NCBI GenBank assembly: GCA_046758745.1
Contig: JBHIAV010000046.1
Location: forward strand, 1 to 23,030
DNA: 23,030 bases
Origin: Gemmatimonadota bacterium
Lineage (GTDB): Bacteria; Gemmatimonadota; Gemmatimonadetes; Palauibacterales; Palauibacteraceae
Direction of reading: 5' to 3'
Both the position numbers and the translations under genes were made by a program. The notes below the pieces were generated by a model. That model searched no databases. It worked only from the letters and a program-made list of their open reading frames with translations, and had not been told where the DNA came from. Below are positions 8,237 through 23,030 of the stretch, piece after piece. Position 1 is the first letter of the stretch. The number at the start of each line of letters is the position of its first letter.

Positions 8237-8692
8237 ATGCAGCTCGGCCACATTCCGTTGGCATTGTCTGTCGCGACCTACGACTGGAATCCGAAAATGG
8301 CCGTCTTCTGTTTGGGAGCGCATTTTCTTCCCAATGCCGATGCGCTGGTCGTCAAGGCCCGCTTGGCCAAGCCATCGTTTCACTGTACGGTTACGCACAA
8401 TCTCCTCTTCGCCCTCGCCGTCACCGGCCTGGTTTATCTTGCAGCCCCGCACTACGCTCCCTTCGCTTTCGTGGCGCTGAGCACACACTACCTCGCAGAC
8501 CTGGGGAGCACGGTGGGCCAACCACTCCTCTGGCCCTTCTCGAAAAGGAAGTTCACGCTCGCCCTGTTCGAGGACACCGGATACTGGGGTTGGAAGATGT
8601 ACACCGGTTACTACAAGCAACCGATGGCCTGGGTCCTGGAAGGAGCGGTCGTGGCGTTCTTTGCGTACCGCCTGCACGCCATCAGCCTGTGA
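8237..8692 (+). CDS. YdjM-family membrane-bound metal-dependent hydrolase
   Basis: GGAGGA RBS; N-terminal His, LPNAD (cf. LPDxD), HCTVTHNL (cf. HRxxTHSL), THYLAD and GQPLLWPF; several hydrophobic segments. Confidence 0.8.
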   Translation: MQLGHIPLALSVATYDWNPKMAVFCLGAHFLPNADALVVKARLAKPSFHCTVTHNLLFALAVTGLVYLAAPHYAPFAFVALSTHYLADLGSTVGQPLLWPFSKRKFTLALFEDTGYWGWKMYTGYYKQPMAWVLEGAVVAFFAYRLHAISL

Positions 8693-8753
8693 ACCGCCTT
8701 GACTGTGCGCCGAATGCCGGCCCGAGTCGGTGGACTCGCCGCGCGGGAGGAGC

Positions 8754-10331
8754 ATGATGCCGTCGGGTAGGCACTGGGATGCGGTGGTCATCGGCAGCGG
8801 TTTCGGCGGGAGCACTGTCGCCCTGAAGCTCGCCGAGGCCGGAATGTCGGTGCTGGTCCTGGAGCGCGGTCGGTGGGTGGACCGTGATGAGAGCGCTTGG
8901 AGCACGCATGCGATTCACATCGACCAGAAATACCGGGGGCAGACTCCCTTCGAGGCACATGCGCCCGGGCTCCGGGGCCTGGTCTATCCCAATCACACGG
9001 TGGGCGGCAACTCGGTCTTCTACGGTGCAGTCTCGTTTCGCCATCGTGCGGACGATTTCAGGCGGCGCAGTCGCTTTGGAGATGCTTCGCCCGAGCGCGT
9101 CTTCGTCGATTGGCCTTTCTCCTACCAAGACCTGGCTCCCTATTACGACCAGGCAGAGCGGCTGCTCGGCGTGGTCGGAGTAGCCGGCGTGGATCCGACG
9201 GAGCCGCCGCGAGACTCGGATTACGCAGGCGCTCCGCCTCCCTACGCGACACCGGCGAGGCGCGTGGCGCGAGCAGCCCGGAAGCTGGGCCTGCGCCCCT
9301 TCCCGATCCCGCTGGCGATCAACTCCAACGGAGGGAACGGTCGGAGCAGGTGCGTCAGGTGCCTCACCTGCGATCTGTACCCGTGCAAGATCGGGGCGAA
9401 GAACGATCTCTGCGTGACGGTGTTGCCCGAGGCGGTGCGACATGGTGCCGTGATTGCGGATCGGGTGACTGCAACCGCGCTCGTCCGGAAGAGGGGTCGC
9501 ATCACCGGAGTGCAGTACCTGGACCTGGATACCGGAGAAACAGGCACCATCTCCACGGCCCTCGCTGTCGTGAGCGGCGGCGCCATCGGGTCCCCGAGGC
9601 TCCTCCTCGCCTCCGGACTGGGGGAGGTAGAGCCGAACGGCGGCCTGATCGGGCGGTACCTCATGCGGCACTGCAGCGGCGTGGTGGCCGGTTTCTTCAC
9701 AGCCATCACCAATCCGGAGCGGCGGTTCCACAAGCAGGTGGCAATCACCGATTTCTACTCCGGTGGTCCAAACGGTGGAGGACCTGTCGGGCCCTGGGGG
9801 ATGATTCAGAGCCTTCAGGTTCCACCGCCGGAGTTCATCAAGATGGTGATGCCGTTTCCCTCCGACCTGATCGGGACCCTGAGCCACAAGCGCAACATCT
9901 TCCTGATGTGCCTGGCCGAGGATGTGCCGCAGTTCGATAACCGGGTGACCCTACACCCGGAGAAAACGGACTTGTACGGGCAGCCCATTGCCATGGTGCG
10001 CTACGAGCACCATCCGGACGACCTGGCGCGGCGGAGCGCCCTCTACCGAGTGGCCAAACGAATCATGCGAAAAGCGGGTGCCTGGGCATGGGTGCACATG
10101 GCCACCAGGAGCTTCTCTCACGCCGCCGGCACCTGCCGCTGCGGAACTGACCCGGCTCACGCCGTCCTGGATCCCATGTGTCGCTTCTTTGGCATACCGA
10201 ACCTCTTCGTGGTGGATGCCAGCTTCATGCCCACATCGGGTGCGGTCAATCCCAGCCTCACCATCGCGGCCAACGGACTTCGGGTGGGTGAGTACATCGT
10301 GGCGCAGTGGACCGACATGCCAAGGCCGTAA
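8754..10331 (+). CDS. GMC-family FAD oxidoreductase
   Basis: GSGFGG dinucleotide fold, VLERG, VGGNSVFY, DWPFSY, CVRCLTCDLYPC Cys cluster, GRYLMRH, HAAGTCRCG, VDASFMPTSGAVNPSLTIAAN. GGAGGAG RBS before ATG 8754. Confidence 0.93.
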   Translation: MMPSGRHWDAVVIGSGFGGSTVALKLAEAGMSVLVLERGRWVDRDESAWSTHAIHIDQKYRGQTPFEAHAPGLRGLVYPNHTVGGNSVFYGAVSFRHRADDFRRRSRFGDASPERVFVDWPFSYQDLAPYYDQAERLLGVVGVAGVDPTEPPRDSDYAGAPPPYATPARRVARAARKLGLRPFPIPLAINSNGGNGRSRCVRCLTCDLYPCKIGAKNDLCVTVLPEAVRHGAVIADRVTATALVRKRGRITGVQYLDLDTGETGTISTALAVVSGGAIGSPRLLLASGLGEVEPNGGLIGRYLMRHCSGVVAGFFTAITNPERRFHKQVAITDFYSGGPNGGGPVGPWGMIQSLQVPPPEFIKMVMPFPSDLIGTLSHKRNIFLMCLAEDVPQFDNRVTLHPEKTDLYGQPIAMVRYEHHPDDLARRSALYRVAKRIMRKAGAWAWVHMATRSFSHAAGTCRCGTDPAHAVLDPMCRFFGIPNLFVVDASFMPTSGAVNPSLTIAANGLRVGEYIVAQWTDMPRP

Positions 10332-10336
10332 CGCGA

Positions 10337-11419
10337 GTGAGCGGGATCAACCTCTGCATTCTGGGGTGCGGGTCGATCGCGAGGCTGCACAGCCGGATCG
10401 CCCGTACGCTGCGACCCCAGCTCAATCTCCTGTACGCGAGCCGATCACTCCAGAAGGCCGAGGCCTATCGCCGCCGGTTCAAGGGAGCAGGTGCCTTCGG
10501 GAGCTACGAGGAGGCCTGCGGCTCACTGGACGTGGACGCCATCCTGATCTGCACTCCCCATGCATTGCATGTGGAGCACGCGCTGCTGGGCGCTCGCCAC
10601 GGCAAACACCTGCTCATCGAGAAGCCGGTCACCCGGGACCTCGCGCAGCTGACCCAAATCGAACGCGCAGTGGAACGGGCCGGCGTGGTCTGCATGGTCG
10701 CTGAGAACTATCACTTCAAGCCGGTTGTCCGGGTGCTTCGCCACCATCTCGAGGCAGGGGACATCGGAGACCCCATCTTCATCGAACTGAACAAGACCGG
10801 GGGCCATCCCGCCGACGGGTGGCGAGCCGATGCGCAGATGATGGGAGGGGGAGCCCTTCTGGAGGGCGGCATACACTGGATCCATCTCGTGCTGTGCGTC
10901 GGAGGGCCGGCGCGTGAGGTCATCGCCGCGAGGCCGACCCACCCCTCACCGCGCCACGCGCCCTTCGAGGACAACCTCGAGGTGCTGTTGAAGTTCGACA
11001 ACGGATCGATCGGCAAGCTGCTCCATTCCTGGAGCACGTCGAACCGCCTCGGGGGGTTGCAGGCATCCAAGATCTACGGCACCGCCGGCAACATCACTTT
11101 CGAGAGCAACGGCTTATGGGCCCTGGTGCTCGGTCGCCGCAAGCGCCTTCGTATACCCGGATGGCGCGACATGATGGGGCGTCGCGGTATGCTGAAGGAG
11201 TTTCTGGCATGCGTGCGGGAGGGCCGGGAGCCTGCCGTGTCGCTCGCGGTGGCCCGCCGGGACCTCGAAGTCGTGCTGGCGGCCTACCGATCGCTGAGTT
11301 CCGGACGGTTCGAGCGTGTCGCCGCCCATGGTGACTCCGAACCCCGGAAGCCGACGGGAGCCGGCGCCCGCGAGCGGGAATCGCCCGAGGACGCGAGTCT
11401 CAAGGGCGAAGGGAGCTGA
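10337..11419 (+). CDS. Gfo/Idh/MocA-family NAD(P)-dependent oxidoreductase
   Basis: GCGSIA, ICTPHALH, KHLLIEKP, GGGALLEGGIH. Probable GTG start 6 nt after the GMC stop. Confidence 0.9.
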   Translation: MSGINLCILGCGSIARLHSRIARTLRPQLNLLYASRSLQKAEAYRRRFKGAGAFGSYEEACGSLDVDAILICTPHALHVEHALLGARHGKHLLIEKPVTRDLAQLTQIERAVERAGVVCMVAENYHFKPVVRVLRHHLEAGDIGDPIFIELNKTGGHPADGWRADAQMMGGGALLEGGIHWIHLVLCVGGPAREVIAARPTHPSPRHAPFEDNLEVLLKFDNGSIGKLLHSWSTSNRLGGLQASKIYGTAGNITFESNGLWALVLGRRKRLRIPGWRDMMGRRGMLKEFLACVREGREPAVSLAVARRDLEVVLAAYRSLSSGRFERVAAHGDSEPRKPTGAGARERESPEDASLKGEGS

Positions 11420-12806
11420 GCAGCGACCGGGACCGTGTGGCGAGCGCCCCGAGCGTTCGGGCCATGTAGACGAGCAGCGTTGCGACGCCCCATCCGAAGG
11501 TGACGTAGAAGGCCTCCTCCAGGTGCCCCGCGGCGAGGCCGACGAGGAGGACGAGCATATAGATGTTCCGCCGCCCCGCGACCAGCCGGAACGCCCGGTC
11601 GAAGGGCCGGTGATCGTGAATCTGTCGGTCGGTGAGCCGCTTGTAGAAACCCGAAACGGCGCGTGCCCCCAGCATCACCCCGACGAGCCCCACACCGAGT
11701 TGCAGCGGCAACCGGTGACCGGTGGCCTGAAGCAGCCCCCAACCCAGCCCCACGTACCACGAGAGCTCGAAGGTCACGTCGAGCAGGTGGTCCAGCCGAT
11801 CCCCGAAGGGGCTCGCCTGCAGCTTCACCCGTGCCAGCTTCCCGTCGACTCCGTCCAGCACGTTGACGATCAAGGCGATCGCGAGACCCCACCCGAACGA
11901 TTGCGTGGCGAAAAGATAGGTAGCGGCGAATGCCACTAGGCCAGTGAAGACGGTGAGCTGGTTCGGGGTGACGGGGGTGCTGGCGATCCACCGCACGCAA
12001 AGGTTCTCGGGTGCGGGATGGAGGAAGCGTGCGGGGAAGTCGAGAACCCCCTTTTGAGCGGCGTCCAGGATCATACGTTCGGCGCGCTTTCGGTCCTCGG
12101 CCGTGCGCAGCACGCACCAATACGGCCGAAGATGGCGACGAAGATCGGGTACATAGGCGGGGAGATCGCGGACCACGAGCCTTGGATCCGCCGCACACGC
12201 TTCGACGCCGACCGCTGCGCCGAAATGGGCCTTGCGGATCTCTGCCACACGGTCGGGAAGCGACCCGCCGTCCAACTTGGCGAGTCCGATCGGGCGCACG
12301 GCGTCCTCACCAGCACCCTCGCCCTCCCGGGCCCGGTCCACCAACCATGTCGGGCTCGGCAAGGCCAAAATCCGGCGGTAAAGCCGCGGATCGTACACAC
12401 CCTCACTCCGGACCAACAAGACCTCTGCCGGCCGCCCGACGGAGCCGGGGATCCCTCCTGGCCCGTCGTCGTGCACGAAGATGACGCGCATGCCACCGAG
12501 AGGGACTTCCGCCAATTGGCGGCGGATCTCGTGCTCGACGTCGCGCTCGGCCGGCTGGCCGTCGAGAAAGACCACGCAGCGCTCGACGCCGATCTCAGCC
12601 AGATGGTAGAGATGCCGTTGTAGAGGCGAGCGGCCGAGAATCCGGCGGAGGCTTACAGGCAGCCCGGAGCCGGGAAGCTTTCGCTCGAGCCCGCCGGCGA
12701 TGGCTGCCACGATGCCGCCATGGCGACCCGGAGCAGCCGGGCGGACCGAGGGAACGGGATCCCTAGATGCCCTTGCAGTTCTCACATAGGGTCCCGGCGA
12801 AGTCAT
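11400..12806 (-). CDS. CDP-alcohol phosphotransferase with degenerate N-terminal nucleotidyltransferase-like domain
   Basis: TPNQLT and complete motif DGVDGKLAR...GDRLDHLLD; multiple TM helices. The N-terminal ~250 aa (ILGRSPLQRHLYHLAEIGVERCVV) resemble an NTP-transferase but lack GxGxR...PK. Start position is uncertain. Confidence 0.85.
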   Translation of the reverse strand: MTSPGPYVRTARASRDPVPSVRPAAPGRHGGIVAAIAGGLERKLPGSGLPVSLRRILGRSPLQRHLYHLAEIGVERCVVFLDGQPAERDVEHEIRRQLAEVPLGGMRVIFVHDDGPGGIPGSVGRPAEVLLVRSEGVYDPRLYRRILALPSPTWLVDRAREGEGAGEDAVRPIGLAKLDGGSLPDRVAEIRKAHFGAAVGVEACAADPRLVVRDLPAYVPDLRRHLRPYWCVLRTAEDRKRAERMILDAAQKGVLDFPARFLHPAPENLCVRWIASTPVTPNQLTVFTGLVAFAATYLFATQSFGWGLAIALIVNVLDGVDGKLARVKLQASPFGDRLDHLLDVTFELSWYVGLGWGLLQATGHRLPLQLGVGLVGVMLGARAVSGFYKRLTDRQIHDHRPFDRAFRLVAGRRNIYMLVLLVGLAAGHLEEAFYVTFGWGVATLLVYMARTLGALATRSRSLLSSLRP

Positions 12807-13671
12807 TCCTCCTCATTCGATCCCGGTACTGTCTGTATTGCTCGCTGTTCCAAATCTCGCGGATCGAGCTGTCGTGGATGTTTCCGAAGACGTGCTTACG
12901 CTCCCAATCGACACAGCAGAGCACCATGTCGCCGTTCCACAGGATCCACGCCCTCCAGAACGGGATCGTGCAGTAGGTTGCGTACCTCCACTCGCCCTCT
13001 TCGGCCGCGATGTCCGTGTTGTCCGTGATTTCGGGATGGGCCCTGTTGTCGAGCTCCCGTGCCTTGAACCGAATGCCCCGCTCTGCCCAGAAGGATCGGG
13101 TGTCCTCCAGCTGTCGATCGACATCCTTGGTCCGAACGGCCCACACTTCGAGGTGCGGTGTCTTCGAGCCCAGCTCATCCTTCACCCGAACCAGGGTTTC
13201 GATGTTTTCGATCGTTCTCGCGAAGCGAGGGCCCCTCATGGTGTCCTCGTAAACCTGTGGATCGACACCCTGCACGCTGAACCTGATGTGTTCGAGTCCG
13301 GAGCGGACGAGGTCGTAAGCCCTCTGCTCGGTCAACAAACCTCCATTGGTGATCAGTTTCGAGATCGGGAAGCGCTTGTTGCCACGTCGCTCCATGATGT
13401 ACGCGATCCGTTCGTGGATCTTGCGATCCACCAACGGGTCGTTCTGAAGGTACGGGCTCAACACCTTGACGTTGTTCTCGATCGCCTCATCCACGATGCG
13501 CCGGAAGGTCGCGTCGTCCATGCAGCCGTGTATCTGGTTTTCTTCGCGCCCCATCGGACAGAACACGCACCGGGCATTACAGCCGTATTTCGTCTGTATC
13601 TGGATGATCTGGGGAAAGGAGGGTGTGAAGCGGGAGAAGGCATGGTACTTCACATACTCCATGAGCGGCAC
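12763..13671 (-). CDS. Radical SAM protein with SPASM/twitch domain
   Basis: CNARCVFC cluster motif, ITNG, and C-terminal YCTIPF...GDMVLCCVDW...GNI....IREIWNS...LCENC. Start is GTG 13671 or ATG 13662. Confidence 0.93.
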   Translation of the reverse strand: MPLMEYVKYHAFSRFTPSFPQIIQIQTKYGCNARCVFCPMGREENQIHGCMDDATFRRIVDEAIENNVKVLSPYLQNDPLVDRKIHERIAYIMERRGNKRFPISKLITNGGLLTEQRAYDLVRSGLEHIRFSVQGVDPQVYEDTMRGPRFARTIENIETLVRVKDELGSKTPHLEVWAVRTKDVDRQLEDTRSFWAERGIRFKARELDNRAHPEITDNTDIAAEEGEWRYATYCTIPFWRAWILWNGDMVLCCVDWERKHVFGNIHDSSIREIWNSEQYRQYRDRMRRNDFAGTLCENCKGI

Positions 13672-13871
13672 GGAAGCGGCCGCTGGCCCCGGAGGGGTCA
13701 GTTTGCGGCGAATCTGGTGCAGTGCCTTGCCCAGTGGAGGCTCCTCGTTCAGCTCGGCGCGTCGAGCCCAGGTTTAATGTGAACGGGAGAGGCGCCGGAG
13801 AAGTTCGGATGGATACGGGCGCTGGCCCGCCCGGCGGGAGAGCGCCTCGCCGAGCGCCGAGCCGGATGCCG

Positions 13872-13996
13872 GAGCCGGGCCGGGGCACGGGGCCTTGGCC
13901 GCGCCGGACGCTCAAGCCGGGCCGCACCACCGAGCCGGGCCGAACCACCGAGCCGGGCCGGGGCACCGGTCCGGAGCCGGGCCGCGGCACGGGGCC
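13872..13996. repeat. GC-rich repeat array, core AGCCGGGCCG, central copies with 18-bp period
   Basis: Core copies at 13873, 13915, 13933, 13951 and 13975. First and last copies are both followed by a GGCACGGGGCC tail. Confidence 0.8.
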
Positions 13997-14156
13997 GTAT
14001 CGGCCACACAGACCCGTCGAACCGCCCTCGCTGGCGAGCCGGGCGAAGGAACAGAATCAGCGAAACTCTCCGGCCGTGGTGAACAGGCGGGGCCAACCGT
14101 AATCTACTCGCCGGCCAAGCGTAATCGTCGGGCAAACCGGCAGCAACCAATCGAGC

Positions 14157-15647
14157 ATGCGAACCACGACCGAGACCGACACGCGCGATCTGGCTCGGGG
14201 CGCGGGCGTCAACTATCTGGGGTTCATCGCGAGGCTCGCGCCCCGGGCCCTGTTCCTGTTCCTGGCCGGCTCGCTCTACGGAGAAGCTCGGTTCGGAGTG
14301 TTCACGTTCGGCATCACGCTCGTCGAGACGGCCGCGGCGGTGGCTCTTTTCGGCATGAAGCGGTCGCTCTTCAAGTTCATGAGCGAAGCTGTGGTCCGCG
14401 GCGAAACCGAACTTCGCGCCGTCGCCAACGGCATGGCGCTGGCTCTGACGACAGGCACCGTCATCACGCTTGCCGTCTCGGTCGGCGCCGATTTCCTCGC
14501 CGGGTTGTTCCGCCTGCCGTCCGCTGCCAGACCGCTTCTCCTGCTCACTCCCGCCATTCCCATGATCGTCGTCTCCGACATCCTCCTCGTGGCGATTCGC
14601 TTCACCCGCCAGATGCGCTTCGAAGTGTGGGCGCGCAGTGTCGCGGAACCCATCACCCTCACCGCCACGGTCGCGATCGCGTACTATGCGGGAGCCCGCG
14701 AAACCGGGCTCCTCATCGGGTATGTGGCGTCGCTGGCCGTGGCGGCCGTCGCATCCGTAATCTTCTTCGTACGAATCTTCCCCCTCCGAACGTGCCTCAG
14801 GATTCCCCTGCAGTGGGAGGAGATGCGCCGACTCATCACCTTCAGTGGACCGACGGCCGGCTACGAGCTCATGCTCCTCCTGACGGACAAGGTCGACATC
14901 TTCCTGGTCACCTACTTCTCCCCCGCAGCGGTCGTAGGGATATATGGGATGGCCCGCCAGCTTTCGACCGTCACCAAGAAGATACGTCAGGGCTTCGACC
15001 GCATTCTGCCGCCGATCCTGTCCGAGAGCATCGCTGCCGGAGACATGGAGCGGGCCCGCGATCAGCTTGCCATGGTGGCGCGGTGGATCCTGTCGATCGA
15101 AGTGCTGATCGTCCTGGGGTTCGCGTTCTACGCCGGCCATCTGCTCGGCCTGCTCGGCGGCGCGTTCGCCGCCGGCGCCGTCATTCTGATCCTCCTGCTG
15201 ATCGGGGATACCATCAACGGCAGCCTCGGCGTAAGCGAGCTTCCGATCGTCTACCTCCGACCCAGCGTGAACATCGCCATCGGCGCCGCCATGCTTCTGA
15301 TGAGCGTGGCTACCAACATCTGGCTCATCCAGGCGATGGGGGCGGTAGGCGCCGCCCTGTCCGTGGTCATCACGTATGCGCTGGTCAACGCCGGGCGGGT
15401 CGGGGTGAACCGGTGGTTGTTTCACATCACGCCGGTGAAGCCGAGCATCCTCAAGCCGCTGCTCGCAGCGTTTCCCGCGGTGGCGGCCATGCTGGCGTGG
15501 CAGCACCTCTCCGCAGACGTACCGTGGGTCGGCACGCTGGTCGGAGTCCCCGTGCTGGTCGCAAGCTATGTGGGTGCACTCTTACTCCTGGGGCTCGAAC
15601 CCGAGGACCGGAGGCAGCTACGGCGGCTGCGCCGCCGCAGCGGGTGA
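14157..15647 (+). CDS. Wzx-like flippase (MOP superfamily, polysaccharide-biosynthesis protein)
   Basis: ~12-14 hydrophobic segments; LARGAGVNYLG start; DKVDIFLV...VGIYGMA; NIWLIQAMGAVGAALS. Confidence 0.85.
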   Translation: MRTTTETDTRDLARGAGVNYLGFIARLAPRALFLFLAGSLYGEARFGVFTFGITLVETAAAVALFGMKRSLFKFMSEAVVRGETELRAVANGMALALTTGTVITLAVSVGADFLAGLFRLPSAARPLLLLTPAIPMIVVSDILLVAIRFTRQMRFEVWARSVAEPITLTATVAIAYYAGARETGLLIGYVASLAVAAVASVIFFVRIFPLRTCLRIPLQWEEMRRLITFSGPTAGYELMLLLTDKVDIFLVTYFSPAAVVGIYGMARQLSTVTKKIRQGFDRILPPILSESIAAGDMERARDQLAMVARWILSIEVLIVLGFAFYAGHLLGLLGGAFAAGAVILILLLIGDTINGSLGVSELPIVYLRPSVNIAIGAAMLLMSVATNIWLIQAMGAVGAALSVVITYALVNAGRVGVNRWLFHITPVKPSILKPLLAAFPAVAAMLAWQHLSADVPWVGTLVGVPVLVASYVGALLLLGLEPEDRRQLRRLRRRSG

Positions 15648-15664: not shown

Positions 15665-17215
15665 TTATCCGGCCGCTGTTTCCCTTGCCCGCTCGGGCTC
15701 GGCCTGCACGAGCCAATCCGGACGATCCACACGGGCGCCGAGGAGGGGAGCCTGCCGGTCACGCCTCGCTCGCCGGAGTGACGAAAGATTCGCTCGCACC
15801 GTCGCTGGAAGCAGCAGAAAGGTGGCGGCGATGCCGGCCATGGGGAGCACCAGGGGTAGCTGACCCACCACAGCCAGCAGCAGCACCCACGCCGCCATCA
15901 GGTCCCTCTTGCCGAGATACTGAAGCACCCGCAGGACCCGACTCAACGGACCGTTCCCCTTCTGGAAGCCGTAGCGCACGGCGAGCGCGCTACCCGATTT
16001 GCCCCGCCGCAGCAGGTAGAAAGAGATGTTAGCCAGGCTGAGGAACACGGCCGCGAGGCCGAGCACGCCGGTCCAGAAGTAAAAATCCGGCAGCGGCGAC
16101 CGGTGGACACCGATTATCAATCCCACCAGGAATGCGAGATAGGCGATGTTGTCGCATATGGTGTCGACCCATTCTCCGCGGTAGCTGCCGCGGAAGGTGA
16201 GCTTGGCCACCTCACCGTCCGTGCCATCCAGAATCGACGCGGCCTGGAAGAGGATGCCGCTCAGCAGGAAGGAAAGGTATCCGCCTGCCGCGGCGAACCC
16301 GGCGGAGACCAACCCGATCACGAGCGCGGCCACACTCACCTGGTTGGGAGTGATCGACGTCCTGACGACGCGGCGACTCACAGCCGTCGAGATCGGCCGG
16401 TTGATATACCGAGCAATCGGGCCGTCGGTCGACCGTCGCACGCCGGCCATCAGCCTTCGCTCCGCCTCGGCCACGTCTTCGGGTGTGTCAACATCGTACC
16501 ACATGCGGTCCCCGATGTCGGTCGCCCGGGCCATACCCGCCGCTGCCAGCTTCTGGACGCCATCGGAGAGAGCTGCATCGCCGTCCTCGCAAGACGCCCT
16601 CAGGGCCGCGAAGAGGGCTGGCGATGCCAGAAACACCCCGGTATCGATGGCATCATAGGTCGGGAGTGCCTTCCCGATGGCCACGATGTGGTCGGACTCG
16701 ACCTGTACCTTGGTGGCGTCTTCCAGGTCGAGCACACCGTCGATCCGGTAGTCGACTGCCAGATCGATCCCCTGTAGACGGTGGACATTCTCGGTGAGCG
16801 CGATCACCACCGCGGGATCGAAGAGGTGATCGGCCATCGTCAGGATGAACGGACCTCTGAGCACGGCTTCGGCCGCGAGCGCCGATAGACCGTTCGACTT
16901 CCGCCACTGGTCGTTATACAACCAGCGTACCTCGATATTCAGTCTCCCGATTCTTTCGATCTCTCGCCGGATCTTTTCGGCCTGGTACCCCACTACGACG
17001 TGGGCCGTCTCGAGACCGGCCTCTTCGAGCGTGAACAGCGTCCTCGCGAGGAGCGGCACTCCAAGCAGTGGAAGGAGCTGCTTCGGCGTGTGGCTCGTGA
17101 GTCTCGTTCCGTCGCCGGCGGCTAGAACCACGGCATCGGCAATACGCTGTCTATGGTCACTCACGTCGTGCATCCAAGTCTTTCGGAATGGAGAGTCGAC
17201 GACGGCGTTAGTCAT
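15665..17215 (-). CDS. Bifunctional NTP-transferase / CDP-alcohol phosphotransferase (IPCT/DIPPS-like architecture)
   Basis: AVVLAAGDGTRL...PKQL, SNGLSA, LTMADH, DLEDATKV, IDTGVF, WYDVDTPED; linker DGPIARYINRPIS; TPNQVS; DGTDGEVAK...GEWVDTICD. GGAGG RBS before ATG 17215. Confidence 0.9.
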   Translation of the reverse strand: MTNAVVDSPFRKTWMHDVSDHRQRIADAVVLAAGDGTRLTSHTPKQLLPLLGVPLLARTLFTLEEAGLETAHVVVGYQAEKIRREIERIGRLNIEVRWLYNDQWRKSNGLSALAAEAVLRGPFILTMADHLFDPAVVIALTENVHRLQGIDLAVDYRIDGVLDLEDATKVQVESDHIVAIGKALPTYDAIDTGVFLASPALFAALRASCEDGDAALSDGVQKLAAAGMARATDIGDRMWYDVDTPEDVAEAERRLMAGVRRSTDGPIARYINRPISTAVSRRVVRTSITPNQVSVAALVIGLVSAGFAAAGGYLSFLLSGILFQAASILDGTDGEVAKLTFRGSYRGEWVDTICDNIAYLAFLVGLIIGVHRSPLPDFYFWTGVLGLAAVFLSLANISFYLLRRGKSGSALAVRYGFQKGNGPLSRVLRVLQYLGKRDLMAAWVLLLAVVGQLPLVLPMAGIAATFLLLPATVRANLSSLRRARRDRQAPLLGARVDRPDWLVQAEPERARETAAG

Positions 17216-17342
17216 CAGCGCCTCCGGCGGCGGCCGAGGCTGCGCATGCCGGGGTGGTGTCGGACCAGCAACCCGGCAGAGAATGCTGTCGTGACGCGGA
17301 CCTCGCCTCTTCAGCGAACGCCGCGGCTGGGAGGCTTCCGGG

Positions 17343-17484: not shown

Positions 17485-17638
17485 GCGGGACCGCTCCGTC
17501 CTCCCGAGCCGAACCTACTTTACAGCTACTGGCCGAGATTCCACAGCCTGACAAACCGGGGACACTCTCGCCATGTTCCTCTTGTCACCTTGGCACCAGG
17601 GGTTGTATGTGAGGAACCCGCCGCGACATAGCGGCCAA

Positions 17639-17864: not shown

Positions 17865-17878
17865 AGACGCAAGCCGAC

Positions 17879-20278
17879 TCACGCCCCCTGGGCGGTCTCT
17901 TTCCTGTCGAACAGCTGTATGAGTGCTGGCAATACGAGCACAGCGGTCACGAAGGTCGCGGACAGCCCGATCACCGCCAGCTCCCCCATCGAAGCCAATC
18001 CGGGATGACTCGCGAGGATCAGCCCTGAGTAACCCGCAATGGTGGTCAAGGTCGTCACTCCTATCGTCAGCCCCGTGTTTCGGAGGACGAAATACAGCGA
18101 ACCGGAGCCCTCCTCCAGGTAGCGGTGATGAATATGCACACCATTGTCCACTCCTACGCCGAGGATCGACGGGAGAACGACGATGTTGAAGAAGTTCAAC
18201 TCCATACCGATCAGATACATCACCCCCCCCATCCATACGACGCCGATGACAAGGGGTGAGAGCACCAGCAGAGCCGACTTCGCGCTCCGAAAATCAGCCA
18301 GTACGATCAGGAACACGACGATGAACGTCAGCAGTACCGCTGTCTTTCCTTCACGCATCATCAAGATCAGCATCTCTGCCGAGATGATGCTCGAGCTGGT
18401 CGCATGGAACACCTTTCCCGATCCGGTCGTGATCGTGCCGACATCATTTCGAAAGTCTATGGCGTTCCGCCCGTCCCTCAGAGCAACGCTGGGATAAATG
18501 AATACGAAACTGCCGAGCTCACCCTTCTTGTTGAGGAACCGGCGTTTCTCATTCTGTGGGACATCCTCCAGCGTGAAGGGCGTATCGACATGCAGATAGG
18601 CCCTCAACTCATCCAGCCGCCTCTTCTCCTCCCCCTTTACCAGCCCCTCCGCCTCCTCTTCTACGAGCTCGCGGATCTCTCGTATCTTTCGGAGTTTCTG
18701 CGGCTGGTCCTCGGGCACGAGAGAATAGACGGAACTCACACTGTTGATGGTCGGCGTGAGCGTATCCTGCTTCATCTTCCACCTCACCGCCGCCATCACC
18801 TCCTCAGCCTCTTCCCTTGAATCGGCCAGAACGACCGCGGGAGACTCCGACCGTGTGAAGACTCCCCGGGTCTTCTCGGCCACCGTTTCACGCTCCTGTG
18901 TGACGACTCTGAGATCCGTGAAATCGTATTCAAAATCGACTCGCGAGAAGGAGACCGCGGCGACGACCGTCAGCGCGGCAGCGGCCAGCAGAATCCCTTT
19001 GGAATACCTGAAACTCCGCCTCTCCCAGCTCAACTTTGCCTTCGGAGCGGGCCGTATCCGTAGCAGACCGGTATCCTCGGCCAGCACGATGAAGGCAGGC
19101 AGAACGACGACCATGGAGAGGAACGCGAACAGTATTCCCACACCTGCTATGAAGCCCAGATGGGAGAAGCCCTTGAAGTCCATGAGCATGAGGGTGAAGA
19201 AAGCCGCCGACGTCGTGACCGCGGTCGTTCCGATAGCCGTGCCCGTCCGGCTCACCATTTTTTCGATCGCAGCTCCGGTGGCCAGGCCCTCTTGACGACT
19301 CTCTACGTACCGCGCAAACGCATGAATACCATAGTCGATGCCGAGCCCGAACAAGATGACGAAGAGAAACCCCGTGATCGTGTTCAACTCGCCGATGACC
19401 AGATACGTGACACCGAAGGTCCAGGCCAGCGAGAAGAGGAGGCTCGTGCTGATCAGGATCGCGCCGAGGACACGACGAAAATACAGAACGATCAGTAGAA
19501 AGACGCCCGAAACTCCGTAGAGGATCGTCCCCAGGATGTCGCGCTTGACGGTTTCATATTCATCCACCTGATTCTTGATATTCCCGCCGTAGTATACCTT
19601 GATGGTCCGGTCGTACAGCTCCGGATGGGTTGCATCGACGATGCGCTCGACGGCCTCCACCATCGCACGATTGAAGGAGAGATCCGAGCTGCTTCGAGAT
19701 GGAAATACCCTCACCACGAGTATCGTGCTGTCGGCGTTCGTGTAGAACGGCTTCGGTTCCTCCGCCCGATACTTCTCTTCCCATTTCGCTAGCTCATCAC
19801 CGCCCTCTTCGGCACCGTCTTCTCCGAACAGGTCCTCGACCAGGAAGGGGTTCAGCCGCTGCTTTTCCTTCTCGATGGTGTTCTGTACCGCCGCGTCGAG
19901 AGAGTCCAAGGTCGCGGTGTCCAGGTAGAGCAGTGCATTCCTCTTGTAGAAGGCCAGATCGTTCTTGTAGTCCACGTAGTTCACGTAGGGACTGGACAGC
20001 AATCGTGGCTCCAGATCTTGGGCGAGCCGCTTGACGGCGGAAAAGTCGTCAGCTTCGAATACGATGCGCAGTTGGCCGATGCCGCCGACCTGTTCCTTCA
20101 TTCGGTTGAGAGCCTGAACGCTTTCGAAGCTATCCGGCAACAGTTCTGCCAAGTCGCTTCGAAGGCTCAACTTCGACGTCAGGTAGCCTCCGACGACCGT
20201 TGCGGCGAAAGCAACGACCAGAATGGGCTTGTAGTGTTTGTGGAGCAGATGGCCGGTATATCGGGGAACTCGAAGCAT
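17879..20278 (-). CDS. MMPL/RND-family transporter (HpnN-like lipid exporter class)
   Basis: Two repeats of TM + large periplasmic loop + 5 TM; GLGIDYGIH and GVGVDNGVH; TTSAAF and TTIAGY; SDLAELLP. Confidence 0.92.
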   Translation of the reverse strand: MLRVPRYTGHLLHKHYKPILVVAFAATVVGGYLTSKLSLRSDLAELLPDSFESVQALNRMKEQVGGIGQLRIVFEADDFSAVKRLAQDLEPRLLSSPYVNYVDYKNDLAFYKRNALLYLDTATLDSLDAAVQNTIEKEKQRLNPFLVEDLFGEDGAEEGGDELAKWEEKYRAEEPKPFYTNADSTILVVRVFPSRSSSDLSFNRAMVEAVERIVDATHPELYDRTIKVYYGGNIKNQVDEYETVKRDILGTILYGVSGVFLLIVLYFRRVLGAILISTSLLFSLAWTFGVTYLVIGELNTITGFLFVILFGLGIDYGIHAFARYVESRQEGLATGAAIEKMVSRTGTAIGTTAVTTSAAFFTLMLMDFKGFSHLGFIAGVGILFAFLSMVVVLPAFIVLAEDTGLLRIRPAPKAKLSWERRSFRYSKGILLAAAALTVVAAVSFSRVDFEYDFTDLRVVTQERETVAEKTRGVFTRSESPAVVLADSREEAEEVMAAVRWKMKQDTLTPTINSVSSVYSLVPEDQPQKLRKIREIRELVEEEAEGLVKGEEKRRLDELRAYLHVDTPFTLEDVPQNEKRRFLNKKGELGSFVFIYPSVALRDGRNAIDFRNDVGTITTGSGKVFHATSSSIISAEMLILMMREGKTAVLLTFIVVFLIVLADFRSAKSALLVLSPLVIGVVWMGGVMYLIGMELNFFNIVVLPSILGVGVDNGVHIHHRYLEEGSGSLYFVLRNTGLTIGVTTLTTIAGYSGLILASHPGLASMGELAVIGLSATFVTAVLVLPALIQLFDRKETAQGA

Positions 20279-20355
20279 CTATATCCGGAACCCTGCGATG
20301 GGAAGTCGTGCCGGGAACGATGAAACCGCCTGTATGCCTTCCCCGACTGAGAAAC

Positions 20356-21012
20356 TCAACCGGAAGGCTGCCCCTCTTCTTCTTTCAACTTGCGGACCAA
20401 TTTCTCGTACATCTCTCGGTACGACGACTTGGCGATCTCTTTATAGAACGAGTCACGGTAGGTTCTGGCCGTGCTCGCTCCATCTATCACCATATCGTAC
20501 GCTTTCCATGCACCACCGACCTTGTGCATACGGTAGACGATCTCGACGGTCTTCCGTCCCTTGTAGGCAATCGTAGTGACATCCGCCTTGTCACCCCGAA
20601 TTGTGGGCTCCGCGTATGTCACGCTGTCCGCCCTGTAGATACTCAGCTTCTTGACGGACGAGTTTCTGATCAACTGCCGAAATACATCGACGAACTCGGT
20701 CCTTTCCTCTTCGGTCCGCTCTTCCCAGTGCTTGGCCAACGCCCGCCGCGAGAGTTCCCTGAAGTCCATCAGGCCGTTGATGATGTCCTTCAGCTTCTCC
20801 TTCGCGTCAGCGCTCAGCTCGTCGCCTGACGATTCCAAGATCTTCTCGACAGCCGAGTTCCTCGCCCGGATCACCTCGACGGGCGACTGAGGGCCGGCGG
20901 CTGAACTTCCTGACGGTATCGACGTCGAGCACAGGAGTAGACCCATTGCCCAACCACGGAACGGGTTCCATCCTCTGCCCCTCATGCCTCGTCTTCTCCT
21001 CACTTCTCCCAT
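20356..21012 (-). CDS. MlaC/Ttg2D/HpnM-family periplasmic lipid-binding protein
   Basis: MDFRELSRRALAKHW...EERTEFVDVFRQLI; IVYRMHKVGGAWKAYDMVIDGAS...YRDSF; signal-like N-terminus. Start could be 21033, 21012 or 20985. Confidence 0.88.
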   Translation of the reverse strand: MGEVRRRRGMRGRGWNPFRGWAMGLLLCSTSIPSGSSAAGPQSPVEVIRARNSAVEKILESSGDELSADAKEKLKDIINGLMDFRELSRRALAKHWEERTEEERTEFVDVFRQLIRNSSVKKLSIYRADSVTYAEPTIRGDKADVTTIAYKGRKTVEIVYRMHKVGGAWKAYDMVIDGASTARTYRDSFYKEIAKSSYREMYEKLVRKLKEEEGQPSG

Positions 21013-21022
21013 GCCGCCACTC

Positions 21023-22396
21023 TCAATTGGCATAGAGGTCCCGGCCCACCGCCTTGCTCAACTCGACCAACGAGGTGTTGTACTCAAAGATATTCCGCAA
21101 ATGTTCAGCCCTCATGGACGAGTTCGCCCGAAACGCGTCGATGACATCCTTGACCTCACCGATCCCGAGATCGAACGTCTGCAATTCGGCGCGGAGCCAA
21201 TTCTCACTTGCCTGCAGAGCCGTGCGACTTTCTTCCATGTTTGCACGAGCCTGCCTGGTCTCGAGATAGGCTTTCTTGACATTCAGCCTGATCCCGCTTT
21301 GCAGCGGTCGCTGCCGTCCAGACATCCTGGCCAGCTCCAGTTGAGCGACCCTGACCTCATCCCGTGTCTGAACGAAGTTCAGATTCCAGTTGAAGCCGAC
21401 CACCAGCCCGGGACGGAAGAAATTCGTTCGATTGGACCAGAACGGGTTCCGCGGGTCGAAGCGGGACGGTGCCCGGTTGTACTTGACCTGTGCGCCAACG
21501 AACAGCTGTGGCAAAAAGTCGCTCTTTTCGACCTCGACGAGTGAGGAGAGGGCGCCGATCCCCGCTTCCAACCGGCTGATCTCCGGTCGGTTGCTCAGCG
21601 CCATATCGGTGTAAGTCTTGAGGCTGTCGAGCGTGACATCGAGAGGCTCGAGGACGTGCGTCTCCACATCTAGATCGGTCTCATCGTCCAGGCCCACAGC
21701 TGCCCGCAGGGCCGCTTTCGCCAGCTCGACCTTGTCCAGCGCCTCGCGATGTCTCTTGTTTATTTCATATGTGAAGATATCGAACTTGAATAGATCGTTC
21801 TGAGTCACTTGCTCGGAGCCTTCATCGAACCTCTCCTCCAGCTTGGTCCGAGCCTCCCTGGCCTCGTCCAGGACATCCTCGACGACCTGCAGCAGCTCAT
21901 AGCCCAAGACGAGGCCCCAGTATGCCTTACGCACCTTTAACCGGACGTCGTTCCTCTCTTTCGCTACGCTCGCCTCCGCCGCGTCCACACGGAAACCGGC
22001 GGCGTCGATGAGTCCACCGATCTTGCCGAAGGTCCAGAGGGGCTGCGTCAGCTCGAGGTCGATTTCCGTGAAATAGCGGAGGTCGGAGAGGCCGGTCGTG
22101 GTGTCGGGCGAGGTGAGCACACCCGTTTCGGTGAAGACACCACGTTGACGAGGAATGGGCCCCCAGACGTTTGTGAGGTTGAGCCTAGGGAGGAAGCGGG
22201 CATGTGACGCTTGAGACCTCTTCGCCCGGGAAAGCGCGAGGTCCCTGTTGGCGGCCTCGATCGAGGGGTTGTTCCTGAGCGCGATCTCCTCCGCTTCGGC
22301 CAGGCTCAAGACCCGCTTCTCGCCTTCCTGGCCGAGACAGAGATCGGCGGACAACAGGCAACCCAGCAGGACGCCGATCAATACCCTGGAATACAT
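21023..22396 (-). CDS. TolC-family outer-membrane efflux protein
   Basis: Signal peptide; LSLAEAEEIALRNNP, FLPRLNL, LTQPLWTFGK, VRKAYW, ALSNRPE, FLPQL, VKKAY, LSKAVG; duplicated OEP repeat. Confidence 0.92.
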   Translation of the reverse strand: MYSRVLIGVLLGCLLSADLCLGQEGEKRVLSLAEAEEIALRNNPSIEAANRDLALSRAKRSQASHARFLPRLNLTNVWGPIPRQRGVFTETGVLTSPDTTTGLSDLRYFTEIDLELTQPLWTFGKIGGLIDAAGFRVDAAEASVAKERNDVRLKVRKAYWGLVLGYELLQVVEDVLDEAREARTKLEERFDEGSEQVTQNDLFKFDIFTYEINKRHREALDKVELAKAALRAAVGLDDETDLDVETHVLEPLDVTLDSLKTYTDMALSNRPEISRLEAGIGALSSLVEVEKSDFLPQLFVGAQVKYNRAPSRFDPRNPFWSNRTNFFRPGLVVGFNWNLNFVQTRDEVRVAQLELARMSGRQRPLQSGIRLNVKKAYLETRQARANMEESRTALQASENWLRAELQTFDLGIGEVKDVIDAFRANSSMRAEHLRNIFEYNTSLVELSKAVGRDLYAN

Positions 22397-22406
22397 CCAC
22401 CGCCTT

Positions 22407-23030
22407 TCACCGCTCGTTGGCTTTCAGGATTCTCTCGACACCCGAAGTGACGGACGGACCGGCCGATCGCAAGGCCCGTATGTCGTCGTAATCCGCATAG
22501 GCGTGCGAGTTCGTCGAATTGGCGTCGGAGAGGAGGCCGATCCCGATGGGCTTGTCGGGCGGCTTGCCCCCGAAAGTTTCCTTATACGCCGCACGTAGAT
22601 CGAACACATACGTGTGCCACTCGTCCAGACCCTCCTTGTCTGTACCGACCACGATCATCCAGGGCTTGCCCACTCCCTCGCGCTGCGTAGCCGAGCCCAC
22701 CGGCAACGACGAACTCCAGACGTACTTGACAGATTCCGGGATCAAGCCCAGCAGCTTCTTCTTGTAAATGAAGTAGATACCTGCCGCACTGTCTACCGTC
22801 TCATCGAATCGTTCGTCGGCACCTTTCGGAATCTCATGCACACGCCACCGGAACGAGACGTACGGATATTTCCTGAGATCCCACTTGACCTCCTTGCCGA
22901 GGATGACCGACTCACCCTCGTCGGTGGCCTCCAGGTACTTGTTGCCATCCTCCTCGCGCACTCGGTACGGCTTATGCTTGTCATCATCTTTGATCTTCCA
23001 CGACCAACCGACCGGCAACTCATCGACCGT
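22407..23030 (-). CDS. DUF3047-family protein (5' end beyond right edge)
   Basis: Frame is open to the edge. FRWRV...GADER...DSAAGIY, KYVWSSSLPVG, DLRAAYKETFG, IGLLSDANST...AYADYDDI match the DUF3047 pattern. Confidence 0.8.
   Translation of the reverse strand, partial: TVDELPVGWSWKIKDDDKHKPYRVREEDGNKYLEATDEGESVILGKEVKWDLRKYPYVSFRWRVHEIPKGADERFDETVDSAAGIYFIYKKKLLGLIPESVKYVWSSSLPVGSATQREGVGKPWMIVVGTDKEGLDEWHTYVFDLRAAYKETFGGKPPDKPIGIGLLSDANSTNSHAYADYDDIRALRSAGPSVTSGVERILKANER

Follow-up and report, generated by a model that had tools for sequence, protein, structure and literature searches.

The 23,030-nt window analysed here is the entire contig C46 of a Gemmatimonadota MAG (G000), with no sequence beyond its right edge, and it carries an 11-gene locus that raises the question of which molecule is built by its head-group enzymes and where that molecule is sent. 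At a probability of about 0.5, the locus is read as an island, spread laterally, whose products attach inositol-phosphate units to the ceramide of its host and carry the resulting lipid to the outer membrane. Of the parts of this reading, a lipid product with its export is highly probable, an inositol donor is likely, and a ceramide backbone is somewhat favoured.

Layout and distribution of the locus

ORF and profile checks recovered all 11 genes with the coordinates and families given in the first-pass annotation; they make up four transcription units, not a single operon, and separable modules. The GC3 of the exporter genes is 0.72-0.76, compared with 0.87-0.89 for flanking housekeeping genes. 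G+C-rich degenerate repeats with a period of ~18 nt (13856..14008; family D1, 5 copies) are located where the radical SAM and flippase genes diverge.

Among 301 genomes of the phylum, a close relative of the cytidylyltransferase fusion described below was found in nine, a close MMPL in eight, all within those nine, and the second CDP-alcohol phosphotransferase (CDP-AP) in seven, all within the eight MMPL carriers and none outside them, a nested pattern that bears out the earlier proposal that the head-group enzymes are co-conserved with the exporter. A total of 44 distinct close-MMPL loci was collected, 25 of which have a flank of at least 5 kb (long-flank loci); one or both CDP-APs are present in 18 of these 25 and neither in the other seven, and the subset of 13 obtained from an MMPL-only metagenome scan includes seven with CDP-AP genes. 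The same partner genes adjoin the exporter in low-G+C relatives, a group whose homologues are named KSB1 and Calditrichaeota. As a point against the island reading, the phylum of a Syntrophaceae bacterium has distant MMPLs only (25-32%), with different neighbours, in 12 of 200 genomes. The grouping is far beyond chance and recurs in other genomes and metagenomes; the island is patchily distributed among uncultured bacteria, and its core consists of the exporter (MMPL, MlaC, TolC, and an MlaC-DUF3047 fusion) and the two CDP-APs. The claim that all 11 genes form one fixed pathway is not upheld: the redox trio and the radical SAM gene are separable from the exporter, and the same MMPL also adjoins phosphonate genes in one locus (L149).

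Head-group and redox enzymes

The IPCT-type cytidylyltransferase fused to a six-helix CDP-AP domain (15665..17215, minus strand, frame open upstream to 17380) scores 224 bits against NF041135, below the cut-off of 580, and its closest solved structure is the IPCT-DIPPS of Archaeoglobus fulgidus (4MND, E 3e-45), an enzyme of di-myo-inositol phosphate (DIP) formation. The structure model (pLDDT 91.8) matches 4MND with a Z of 32.0 and an rmsd of 2.9 over 403 residues, and this model and a motif audit show that the two-domain arrangement, the fold, the IPCT motifs, and the CDP-AP signature are kept. Together with the modelled six-helix architecture, which is tied to soluble acceptors in PMC4634129, and with the name that homologues bear in some sources, CDP-L-myo-inositol myo-inositolphosphotransferase, this resemblance could suggest that the fusion is a normal IPCT/DIPPS and its product the soluble osmolyte DIP. 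However, the fusion scores below the NF041135 cut-off, forms a separate clade (support 98/98), and is linked to a lipid exporter; it also differs from 4MND by a ~30-residue insertion between helices 4 and 5. The acceptor residues are SY and KRDER in 4MND and SYTRAR and RAER in the host PIP synthase (C7), whereas the SY and the second Arg are both absent from all 22 rows of the fusion's clade; in a 105-row alignment, R416-D417 is invariant and the second-Arg position is occupied by Phe in at least 90%. Relatives adjoining ino1 or an inositol monophosphatase retain the acceptor residues, and the arginine is essential in PIPS according to PMC4634129. Because the inositol-phosphate acceptor residues of DIPPS and PIPS are lost, the fusion is unlikely, judging from its sequence, to be a DIP producer, and the osmolyte explanation as a whole is very improbable; the earlier preference for a lipid over soluble DIP gains support accordingly. 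The proposal of a cyclitol donor is likewise strengthened by the IPCT motifs and fold and by the presence of ino1 in G000 and in all five carriers tested.

The second CDP-AP (11400..12806, minus strand; PF01066) has a degenerate N-terminal nucleotidyltransferase-like domain, in 120 homologues of which the LA[AG]GxGxR motif was found in none. It is the reciprocal best match in G000 (E 4e-30; the next CDP-AP has 8.5e-6), and CpgA-family motifs align with it; by sequence, it is a member of the CpgA-position (CC_1159-like) family, in which the Cpg labels derive from gene order and not from Caulobacter sequences. Of 17 matches among its plasmid relatives, four were inspected, and all four lie in Caulobacter-type phosphosphingolipid loci. 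The Wzx/polysaccharide-synthesis-type flippase gene (14157..15647, plus strand; PF01943/PF13440) usually adjoins this CDP-AP gene in the co-occurrence table, and with its profile the host Wzx proteins score above the flippase of the Roseomonas Cpg locus.

Three plus-strand genes form a cassette of a GMC oxidoreductase, a Gfo/Idh/MocA protein, and a membrane protein. The last of these is a YdjM-family protein of 151 aa (8237..8692; PF04307, E 1.5e-10), the hydrolase activity of which is uncertain and whose place is taken in other loci by U0, a membrane protein of ~275 aa that is not related to it. The GMC flavoprotein, of the sugar/polyol dehydrogenase type (8730..10331; PF05199/PF00732), has the large subunits of glucose and fructose dehydrogenases as its best solved relatives (E 4e-34), and no signal peptide was seen on it. 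The NAD(P)-dependent Gfo/Idh/MocA oxidoreductase (10307..11419; PF01408/PF22725) has inositol 2-dehydrogenase as its best NCBIfam model (105 bits, cut-off 355), and its gene occurs in 39 of the 301 phylum genomes. Both subtypes of the trio are linked to the exporter, and the cassette is present without the exporter in 32 genomes. The radical SAM gene (12763..13734, minus strand; PF04055 + PF13186, Twitch/SPASM) probably starts at a CTG at 13734 behind GAGGAG, upstream of the ORF-finder start at 13671, and the resulting N-terminal extension is homologous to relatives. Its best PDB match is the distant BtrN (E 4e-12), reportedly a 2-deoxy-scyllo-inosamine dehydrogenase, with which it shares a short radical SAM core and a twitch domain. 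The gene is missing from all five other carriers tested and is an optional part of the island.

A predicted four-part exporter

The exporter genes all lie on the minus strand. The predicted MMPL/RND inner-membrane lipid exporter (17879..20278; PF03176), related to HpnN and BstA, scores 315 bits against HpnN (cut-off 752) and 233 bits against BstA (cut-off 1400). The predicted MlaC/HpnM-like periplasmic lipid shuttle (20356..21033; PF05494, E 7.5e-32) reaches 51 bits with the HpnM model (cut-off 160). Next in coordinate order is a TolC/OEP-family outer-membrane protein (21023..22396; PF02321 in two stretches, E 1.2e-44), for which a 20-sequence alignment was made; no adaptor family was present among the scanned neighbours in the window and related loci. 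The DUF3047 gene (22407..23030; PF11249) is cut by the contig end and corresponds to the C-terminal half of MlaC + DUF3047 fusions of about 380-480 aa; the missing MlaC half is absent from the G000 assembly. In the model of the G060 orthologue (pLDDT 89), an MlaC fold (Z 17.4) is joined to a CBM11-like fold (Z 10.9), so that DUF3047 is modelled as a CBM-like beta-sandwich and the fusion as a lipid pocket with a CBM-like domain.

MMPL, MlaC, MlaC/CBM, and TolC thus appear to constitute a previously undescribed four-part transporter, whose outward direction and lipid cargo are predicted from its components. An MMPL with a periplasmic lipid carrier beside lipid biosynthesis genes is shared with HpnN/HpnM hopanoid and BstABC sterol transport (PMC11713862), and an MMPL is also encoded beside spt in Myxococcus xanthus (bioRxiv 10.64898/2026.04.12.717747). 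Unlike the hopanoid and sterol systems, the window proteins fall below all curated cut-offs, have no hopanoid or sterol genes nearby, and include two MlaC-fold carriers, one of them CBM-like fused, and an adaptor-less TolC-family partner. Only one lptFG pair is present in G000, and one locus in each of five carriers; Lpt-independent export is the best reading of these gene contents.

Candidate pathway and competing readings

A possible route begins with inositol-1-phosphate from the host Ino1 and ceramide from a host operon of spt-bCerS-cerR-like genes, both of which are present elsewhere in G000; the first-pass annotation was correct that neither an inositol-1-phosphate synthase nor a serine palmitoyltransferase gene is in the window. 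The IPCT domain of the fusion would form CDP-inositol, and its CDP-AP domain could then load inositol-phosphate onto a neutral lipid alcohol, for which ceramide is the likeliest candidate; such a Kennedy-type reaction would not require ceramide kinase. A second phospho-cyclitol unit may be added by the CpgA-family enzyme, as CpgA converts CPG to CPG2 in Caulobacter, and ring hydroxyls may be oxidized or epimerized by the accessory GMC and Gfo enzymes, optionally with the BtrN-like radical SAM enzyme. The bulky lipid would be flipped by the Wzx-like protein and passed by the proton-driven MMPL to MlaC and the MlaC-CBM fusion, which may read the polar head, and the TolC-family protein could serve as the outer-membrane end, replacing the LptF2G2 route of Proteobacteria. 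If this is true, the exporter would be a candidate for the second, so far unidentified path by which bacteria export sphingolipids.

This chemistry has described precedents, so that the earlier statement that no such pathway is described holds for the combination and its exporter alone. In Rhodothermus marinus, inositol ether lipids are reported to be made from CDP-inositol (Jorge et al. 2015) by an IPCT/DIPPS-like enzyme with a neutral lipid acceptor; this route shares CDP-inositol as head-group donor with the pathway proposed here, and we know of no CpgA-family partner or exporter for it. The ceramide (di)phosphoglycerate locus of Caulobacter crescentus, CpgABCD with LptF2G2 (PMC11324152, PMC12275187, PMC13228409, bioRxiv 10.64898/2026.04.12.717747), shares cytidylyltransferase and CDP-AP lipid decoration, a CpgA-position enzyme, and a flippase and transporter in the locus. 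In contrast, the window has an IPCT-type rather than CpgD-type donor enzyme fused to another CDP-AP, extra redox enzymes, and the MMPL-based exporter in place of LptF2G2. The putative alternative inositol lipid cluster of Bacteroides vulgatus/Prevotella, unconfirmed, also pairs an NTP transferase with a CDP-AP and is proposed to proceed via CDP-inositol, but its genes are separate and lie beside MIPS and a HAD hydrolase, with no exporter described in the available part of PMC9246714.

The annotation had left a DAG-, ether-, or ceramide-based lipid open, which is here refined: ceramide is more likely than DAG or ether on sequence grounds because the second CDP-AP belongs to the CpgA-position family and one subclade adjoins ceramide genes. 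Such genes adjoin five of the 44 distinct close-MMPL loci (4/25 long-flank), all in or near that subclade, and not the window. In L014, L058, L060, and L156, of one subclade, a CpgB-like (ceramide-kinase-like) gene is first in the operon; CpgC-like, CerR-like, and bCerS-like genes are also present in G159, and G116 has aasR-cerR-acpR-spt and bCerS beside the exporter, with an spt score of 617 (NF047599, cut-off 500). The spt of G000 scores 533 against a curated cut-off of 640, and a bCerS-like gene is found in 188 of 301 phylum genomes, so its presence in G000 is weakly informative. No CpgB or CpgC orthologue was found in G000 (87% complete) or in any of five carriers tested for each, the two carrier searches having been run on sets that contained no positive genome. 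A PI-type glycerolipid, formed from CDP-inositol and DAG or dialkylglycerol as is reported for R. marinus, extended by the CpgA-family enzyme, and exported, would agree with the lack of ceramide genes beside the window and 39 of 44 exporter loci, with the binding of glycerophospholipids by MlaC folds, and with the CDP-inositol route to dialkylether inositol lipids cited in PMC9246714. It is nevertheless rather unlikely: a second PI route would be redundant beside the canonical ino1-PIP synthase pair that C7 of G000 carries, the annotated relatives of the second CDP-AP lie in ceramide loci, and a Ger/PlsA-like query, so labelled from its domains, matched G000 by ATPase domains alone.

The six-helix architecture of the fusion, with its link to soluble acceptors, counts against ceramide, as do the resemblance of the flippase to host Wzx and the GT4/GT2 genes flanking several loci (L008, L057, L059, L061, L151, L171, L174); the latter two mean that the acceptor could be a glycolipid or glycan. 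Phospho-inositol or phospho-polyol would then be added to a glycolipid, lipoglycan, or Und-PP-linked repeat, which Wzx flips and the CBM-like domain of DUF3047 binds, and related fusions in another class do occur among flagellin-glycosylation genes (L065-L068). With glycosyltransferase, polymerase, and ligase genes absent from the window and most carrier loci, small lipids as the cargo of MMPL and MlaC, and the CpgA-family link of the second CDP-AP, this explanation is improbable. So, taken whole, is a mosaic hotspot of envelope-lipid genes in which a lipid exporter of general use, a head-group module, and a redox cassette unrelated to them do not act on one molecule, as the four transcription units, the 32 non-carriers with the trio, and the exporters standing alone or beside phosphonate genes might suggest; for the trio and the radical SAM gene, it probably holds in part. 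The modules are scattered across the genome in G060, G086, G110, and G144, yet fusion, second CDP-AP, and MMPL still share the same few genomes, and in the U0 subclade the genes kinase-GMC-Gfo-U0-exporter-fusion are co-directional.

Composition, origin and distribution of the island

All eleven neighbouring genes named in the first-pass annotation were confirmed in the window, where they form four transcription units: YdjM (8237-8692), GMC (8730-10331) and Gfo/Idh/MocA (10307-11419) genes on the forward strand; a radical SAM gene and a second CDP-alcohol phosphotransferase (CDP-AP) gene (11400-12806) on the reverse strand; a flippase gene (14157-15647) on the forward strand; and DUF3047 (22407-23030), TolC (21023-22396), MlaC (20356-21033), MMPL (17879-20278) and nucleotidyltransferase-CDP-AP fusion (15665-17215) genes on the reverse strand. 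They constitute a real, recurrent and mobile island for lipid decoration and export. The radical SAM gene probably starts with a CTG codon at 13734, behind GAGGAG, because the 21 codons gained in this way correspond to an N-terminal extension seen in its relatives. The window is an entire contig of a 3.08 Mb, 87% complete assembly, and the contig end cuts the DUF3047 gene, the relatives of which are MlaC-DUF3047 fusions; the absent half was not found in the host assembly. No Rfam match was obtained in the window.

The nearest relatives of the window genes are Gemmatimonadota records, and housekeeping genes (TldD/PmbA, fused E1, Ppx) fill the left 7 kb. The G+C content falls from about 0.70 to 0.63-0.67 (8-18 kb) and then to 0.57-0.60 (18-23 kb), and GC3 is 0.72-0.76 in the four exporter genes, 0.76-0.84 in the other seven island genes and 0.87-0.89 in four flanking genes, the reference being a median of 0.85 for 1650 ORFs called by a crude method. 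The low GC3 and G+C content, together with a patchy distribution, point to acquisition of the island. On the left side of the window, the gene at 4454-5869, upstream of the Ppx exopolyphosphatase gene, probably encodes an outer-membrane barrel that has a coiled coil at the N terminus and ends in Phe; the product matches no family above cut-off and has one paralogue on another host contig (C36). A tandem 34-nt duplication, 85% identical, lies directly after the Ppx gene (6984-7051), near the onset of the G+C drop, and just left of the island (7581-8021) is an ORF of 146 aa that matches nothing in Pfam or NCBIfam.

Across 301 evenly sampled genomes of the phylum, host included, the fusion had matches at E≤1e-30 in 42 genomes (9 close) and the MMPL in 11 (8 close); the second CDP-AP was matched in 7. 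The 8 genomes with a close MMPL, hereafter carriers, all fall within the 9 with a close fusion, and the 7 with the second CDP-AP all fall within the 8; in the ninth close-fusion genome, a fragment of an MMPL lies close to the fusion. The carriers represent 7 genera and 3 families and are not independent. A close MMPL is held by 69 fetched loci, which form 44 groups; among 25 long loci (at least 5 kb of flank), some of which were found using the fusion as query, the fusion or the second CDP-AP is present in 18 and no CDP-AP is seen in 7, and a metagenome scan with the MMPL only gave 7 of 13 long loci with either gene. A low-G+C group (39-50%), whose MMPLs are 55-63% identical to that of the window, carries the fusion, radical SAM, second CDP-AP, flippase, MlaC-DUF3047, TolC and MlaC genes in varying order alongside the MMPL gene. 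Homologues of this group bear the names KSB1 and Calditrichaeota, and 23 of 37 fusion homologues so named (P0248-P0312, contigs of at least 10 kb) lie on a contig identical in size to that of an MlaC-DUF3047 homologue, a hand count that takes contig size as a stand-in for linkage. Fusions at a greater distance carry the names Latescibacteria and Zixibacteria.

A plasmid search with the MMPL returned distant matches only, and in 200 genomes from the phylum to which a Syntrophaceae bacterium belongs, 12 distant MMPLs were found, none with the module. Other distant MMPLs (27-32%; loci L186, L190, L217 and L218) recur with GT4 and polysaccharide deacetylase genes, most of them also with LPG-synthase-like or lipid kinase and PAP2_3 genes, and appear to represent another uncharacterised lipid system.

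Donor and acceptor specificity of the head-group enzymes

The nucleotidyltransferase domain of the fusion has the motifs LAAGxGxR..PK, MxDH, ATKV, DTG and WxDVDT in common with 2XME and 4JD0 (Z 29 to 4JD0 in a model comparison), whereas CpgD-like proteins, named after the Caulobacter ceramide (di)phosphoglycerate (Cpg) locus, show NGD, GESIG and WxEID instead; its identity is 37-40% to IPCT-like proteins versus 27-29% to CpgD-position proteins. The CDP-AP signature DxxDGxxAR...GxxxDxxxD is present with AK replacing AR. By sequence and by model (pLDDT 91.8; Z 32.0, rmsd 2.9 over 403 residues), the closest solved relative of the fusion is the IPCT-DIPPS of A. fulgidus (4MND). The fusion resembles IPCT in both motifs and fold; in contrast, it differs from DIPPS in its acceptor site, and it scores 224 bits against the equivalog NF041135, below the cut-off of 580.

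PIP synthases hold the phosphate of their inositol-phosphate acceptor with a serine and with the second Arg of RxxR, the latter being needed for activity (PMC4634129, in part). Both features, SY and the second Arg, are kept in 4MND, in the host PIP synthase beside ino1 on contig C7 and in fusions adjoining ino1 or inositol monophosphatase genes, whereas both are absent in 22 of 22 rows of the fusion clade of the window (support 98/98). The underlying tree held 54 rows, after removal of fragments shorter than 200 residues and of rows without a match to the signature pattern; three low-G+C fusions lost through this filtering were examined separately. Among 120 further homologues, SY was found in none, and the second Arg was absent in 72 and present in none, the other 48 being unmatched by the motif pattern; in a 105-row alignment, Phe occupies the second-Arg position in at least 90%. 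Between helices 4 and 5, the CDP-AP domain has an additional segment of about 30 residues. Inositol-1-phosphate is thus unlikely as the acceptor, and the loss of SY and the second Arg makes a neutral, hydrophobic alcohol more likely. The six-helix CDP-AP domain counts against such an acceptor, since this architecture is associated with soluble acceptors (PMC4634129, in part). With that counterpoint, the absence of the DIPPS acceptor residues from the clade favours the lipid product that had been preferred over soluble di-myo-inositol phosphate (DIP), and the fusion appears to be IPCT-like rather than a DIP synthase. A large subfamily of IPCT-CDP-AP fusions, partly named DIP synthases in databases, has no DIP acceptor site.

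Two variants of the fusion were also encountered. At L061:4266-10541 (genome G060), a fusion without the nucleotidyltransferase motif is flanked by two stand-alone nucleotidyltransferases, with radical SAM and second CDP-AP genes next and the exporter on another contig. In another class of the phylum (L065-L068), related fusions that have no RD motif are surrounded by flagellar genes and Maf glycosylation genes, a setting that suggests a role in modifying the flagellin glycan.

Through its second CDP-AP, the island is linked by gene order and homology to phosphosphingolipids. This enzyme matched 17 plasmid records, 13 of them from Roseomonas, and 4 were opened. In Roseomonas marmotae and R. 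mucosa the order is metallophosphoesterase, CDP-AP, lipid kinase, hypothetical, spt and ACP, and these loci also hold HIT, lptF/G, bCerS-like, two nucleotidyltransferase, cerR-like, acyl-AMP ligase and flippase genes; the same order occurs in CC_1152-CC_1168 of Caulobacter, where CC_1159 is the CDP-AP (PMC11324152, in part). A Roseomonas protein query of the host assembly gave the second CDP-AP of the window as best match (E 4e-30; next CDP-AP 8.5e-6). The match is reciprocal, and motifs align over the full length with the CpgA-position proteins of Roseomonas, Pseudomonas and Diaphorobacter, Cpg labels being assigned here by gene order and not by Caulobacter sequences. CpgA converts CPG to CPG2 using CDP-glycerate (PMC13228409; PMC12275187; both in part). 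The island appears to work like the Cpg locus, with a CpgA (CC_1159)-position CDP-AP, yet falls outside it: the donor domain is IPCT-type rather than a CpgD-type phosphoglycerate cytidylyltransferase, and no CpgB, CpgC or second lptFG pair (LptF2G2) was found in the 87% complete host assembly, which has two generic DAGK genes. Cpg-type gene sets without spt were also seen on IncP plasmids of Pseudomonas and Diaphorobacter (L232, L233), and a second locus of genome G159 (L244:9452-13043) combines a CpgA-family CDP-AP, a CpgD-like cytidylyltransferase and a further CDP-AP.

For the scheme as a whole, the most likely product is a ceramide with one or two inositol-phosphate units, at a probability of about 0.5. 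The right edge of the window, past which ino1 and spt were to be sought, is the contig end; both were located elsewhere in the host, ino1 on C7 and an spt-like gene in an spt-bCerS-cerR-like operon on C2 (33347-36990; L085), the best model for the spt being NF047600, with a score under cut-off. Furthermore, ino1 was found in 5 of 5 carriers tested. A bCerS-like gene occurs in 188 of 301 genomes, which suggests that ceramide synthesis is common in Gemmatimonadota and makes its presence in a genome uninformative as evidence for a ceramide backbone. In family f6, bCerS occurs in only 15 of 47 genomes, and each of its two carriers has a single, divergent match, consistent with the copy beside the cluster. 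Ceramide genes adjoin 5 of the 44 close-MMPL groups, from one subclade that is not that of the window. In genome G116 the cluster adjoins acyl-AMP ligase, cerR-like and ACP genes and an spt passing NF047599, an arrangement repeated in L156, and in L155 bCerS immediately follows the fusion. A CpgB-like kinase gene lies directly upstream of GMC on the same strand in L014, L058, L060 and L156, the four related loci with a CpgB-like gene; G159, the one with a CpgC-like gene, additionally has PIPS-type, cerR-like and bCerS-like genes. Neither CpgB nor CpgC was found in the 5 carriers tested for each. If the ceramide reading holds, the lack of both in the host implies that the first step would be direct transfer to ceramide. 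The predicted anionic inositol sphingolipid offers a target for environmental lipidomes.

A candidate trans-envelope exporter

HpnN and BstA are relatives of the MMPL, which nevertheless falls below the cut-offs of their models (bits/cut-off 315/752, 185/1100 and 233/1400), and no hopanoid or sterol genes were found among its window neighbours. The MlaC matches PF05494. In a model of the G060 MlaC-DUF3047 fusion (98 rows, pLDDT 89), the N-terminal domain has the MlaC fold (Z 17.4, rmsd 2.8 over 173 residues), and DUF3047 forms a beta-sandwich similar to CFAP20, to CBM11/CBM16 and to the C5-epimerase sandwich (Z 10-14), a fold likeness that alone shows no function. Conservation is much higher in DUF3047 than in its MlaC partner, and an ESM Atlas query with DUF3047 returned DUF3047 clusters only. 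In contrast to tripartite RND-adaptor-TolC pumps, no periplasmic adaptor (membrane fusion protein) gene was found in the window or in the scanned neighbours of related loci. A predicted complex of the G060 TolC, MlaC and MlaC-DUF3047 fusion scored 0.46, against 0.49 for one control, and carries no weight here.

How sphingolipids are exported in bacteria with a single lptFG is an open question, for which an MmpL gene after spt in Myxococcus was offered as a guess (bioRxiv 10.64898/2026.04.12.717747, in part). The host has one lptFG pair, and each of 5 carriers has one locus. In L149:2297-5306, the gene for the same MMPL (61%) stands ahead of genes for a TPP decarboxylase and for a nucleotidyltransferase-aminotransferase V fusion, the latter probably of the PntC-AEPT type for aminoethylphosphonate activation, suggesting that the same exporter ships an aminoethylphosphonate head group. 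These phosphonate-type neighbours, together with the seven long loci without CDP-AP, indicate a modular exporter. As one joint proposal, tentative and on balance doubtful, MMPL, MlaC, MlaC-CBM(DUF3047) and an adaptor-less TolC could form a new trans-envelope exporter in Gemmatimonadota, KSB1 and Calditrichota. It would work without Lpt, delivering sphingolipids that bear inositol phosphate or another phospho-polyol to the outer membrane, would combine with exchangeable cassettes for the head group (inositol phosphate or aminoethylphosphonate), and would use DUF3047 as head-group reader. The island would thereby name a complete four-protein candidate for sphingolipid export in single-lptFG bacteria, small enough to transfer to a laboratory strain, and would provide a first functional handle on DUF3047 as well as a case of a TolC-family protein that operates with no adaptor.

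A description of this exporter architecture could not be found. The literature search, which lay outside subscription journals, returned no paper on the gene combination and none joining MMPL, TolC, MlaC and sphingolipid or KSB1, Gemmatimonad and sphingolipid; DUF3047 was found in one paper, PMC3597751 (in part). The main text of PMC11334938, as far as covered, mentions neither an inositol sphingolipid nor these phyla, which its supplements and those of ceramide papers may list as sphingolipid producers.

Accessory genes of the island

The co-conservation expected of the head-group and exporter modules held for the fusion, second CDP-AP and MMPL, nested in the same genomes; the redox trio also occurs without the exporter, and none of 5 other carriers tested has the radical SAM gene. 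BtrN is the closest relative of the radical SAM protein, which, like BtrN-like cyclitol enzymes, has CxxxCxxC (C31/C35/C38) and twitch cysteines (C234, C252/C253, C296, C299), all invariant in 6 of 6 rows. Epimerase and dehydrogenase are both candidate activities; no paper on the HygY or SpeY mechanism was found in the literature on twitch epimerases. The flippase tracks the second CDP-AP, and its orthology to Cpg-locus flippases is unsupported, since its profile ranks host Wzx proteins far higher than the Roseomonas flippase of such a locus.

Gfo occurs in 39 of 301 genomes, 32 of which are without the exporter, and specificity of the trio to the island was thus rejected. Among 20 of these 32 opened, GMC lies alongside in all 20, and YdjM or an unrelated membrane protein that replaces it, U0, in 17, with no exporter or CDP-AP gene beside any; the cassette is present in 8 of 8 carriers, within the cluster or elsewhere. 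The GMC-Gfo-membrane protein set is an independent cassette recruited to the island, which plausibly oxidises and then reduces a sugar or cyclitol hydroxyl, its best solved relatives being sugar dehydrogenases. The radical SAM and GMC/Gfo genes as alternative routes were dropped, because G060 and the host have both and G086 has radical SAM with a Gfo-U0 pair. YdjM has PNAD and HCTVTH in place of the family motifs PDxD and HRxxTH, so its hydrolase activity is uncertain. U0, of about 275 aa, has no Pfam or NCBIfam match and contains an internal repeat (two KDAPxEGF segments); it replaces YdjM beside GMC-Gfo in L014:3279-4106 and in 14 loci among L284-L300, and its ESM Atlas clusters, from Bacteroidota, Myxococcota and Gemmatimonadota, are unnamed. 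Stand-alone cassettes adjoin a DedA/VTT protein gene in three genomes (L283, L285, L288) and a PAP2_3 protein gene in one, hinting at action on membrane lipids.
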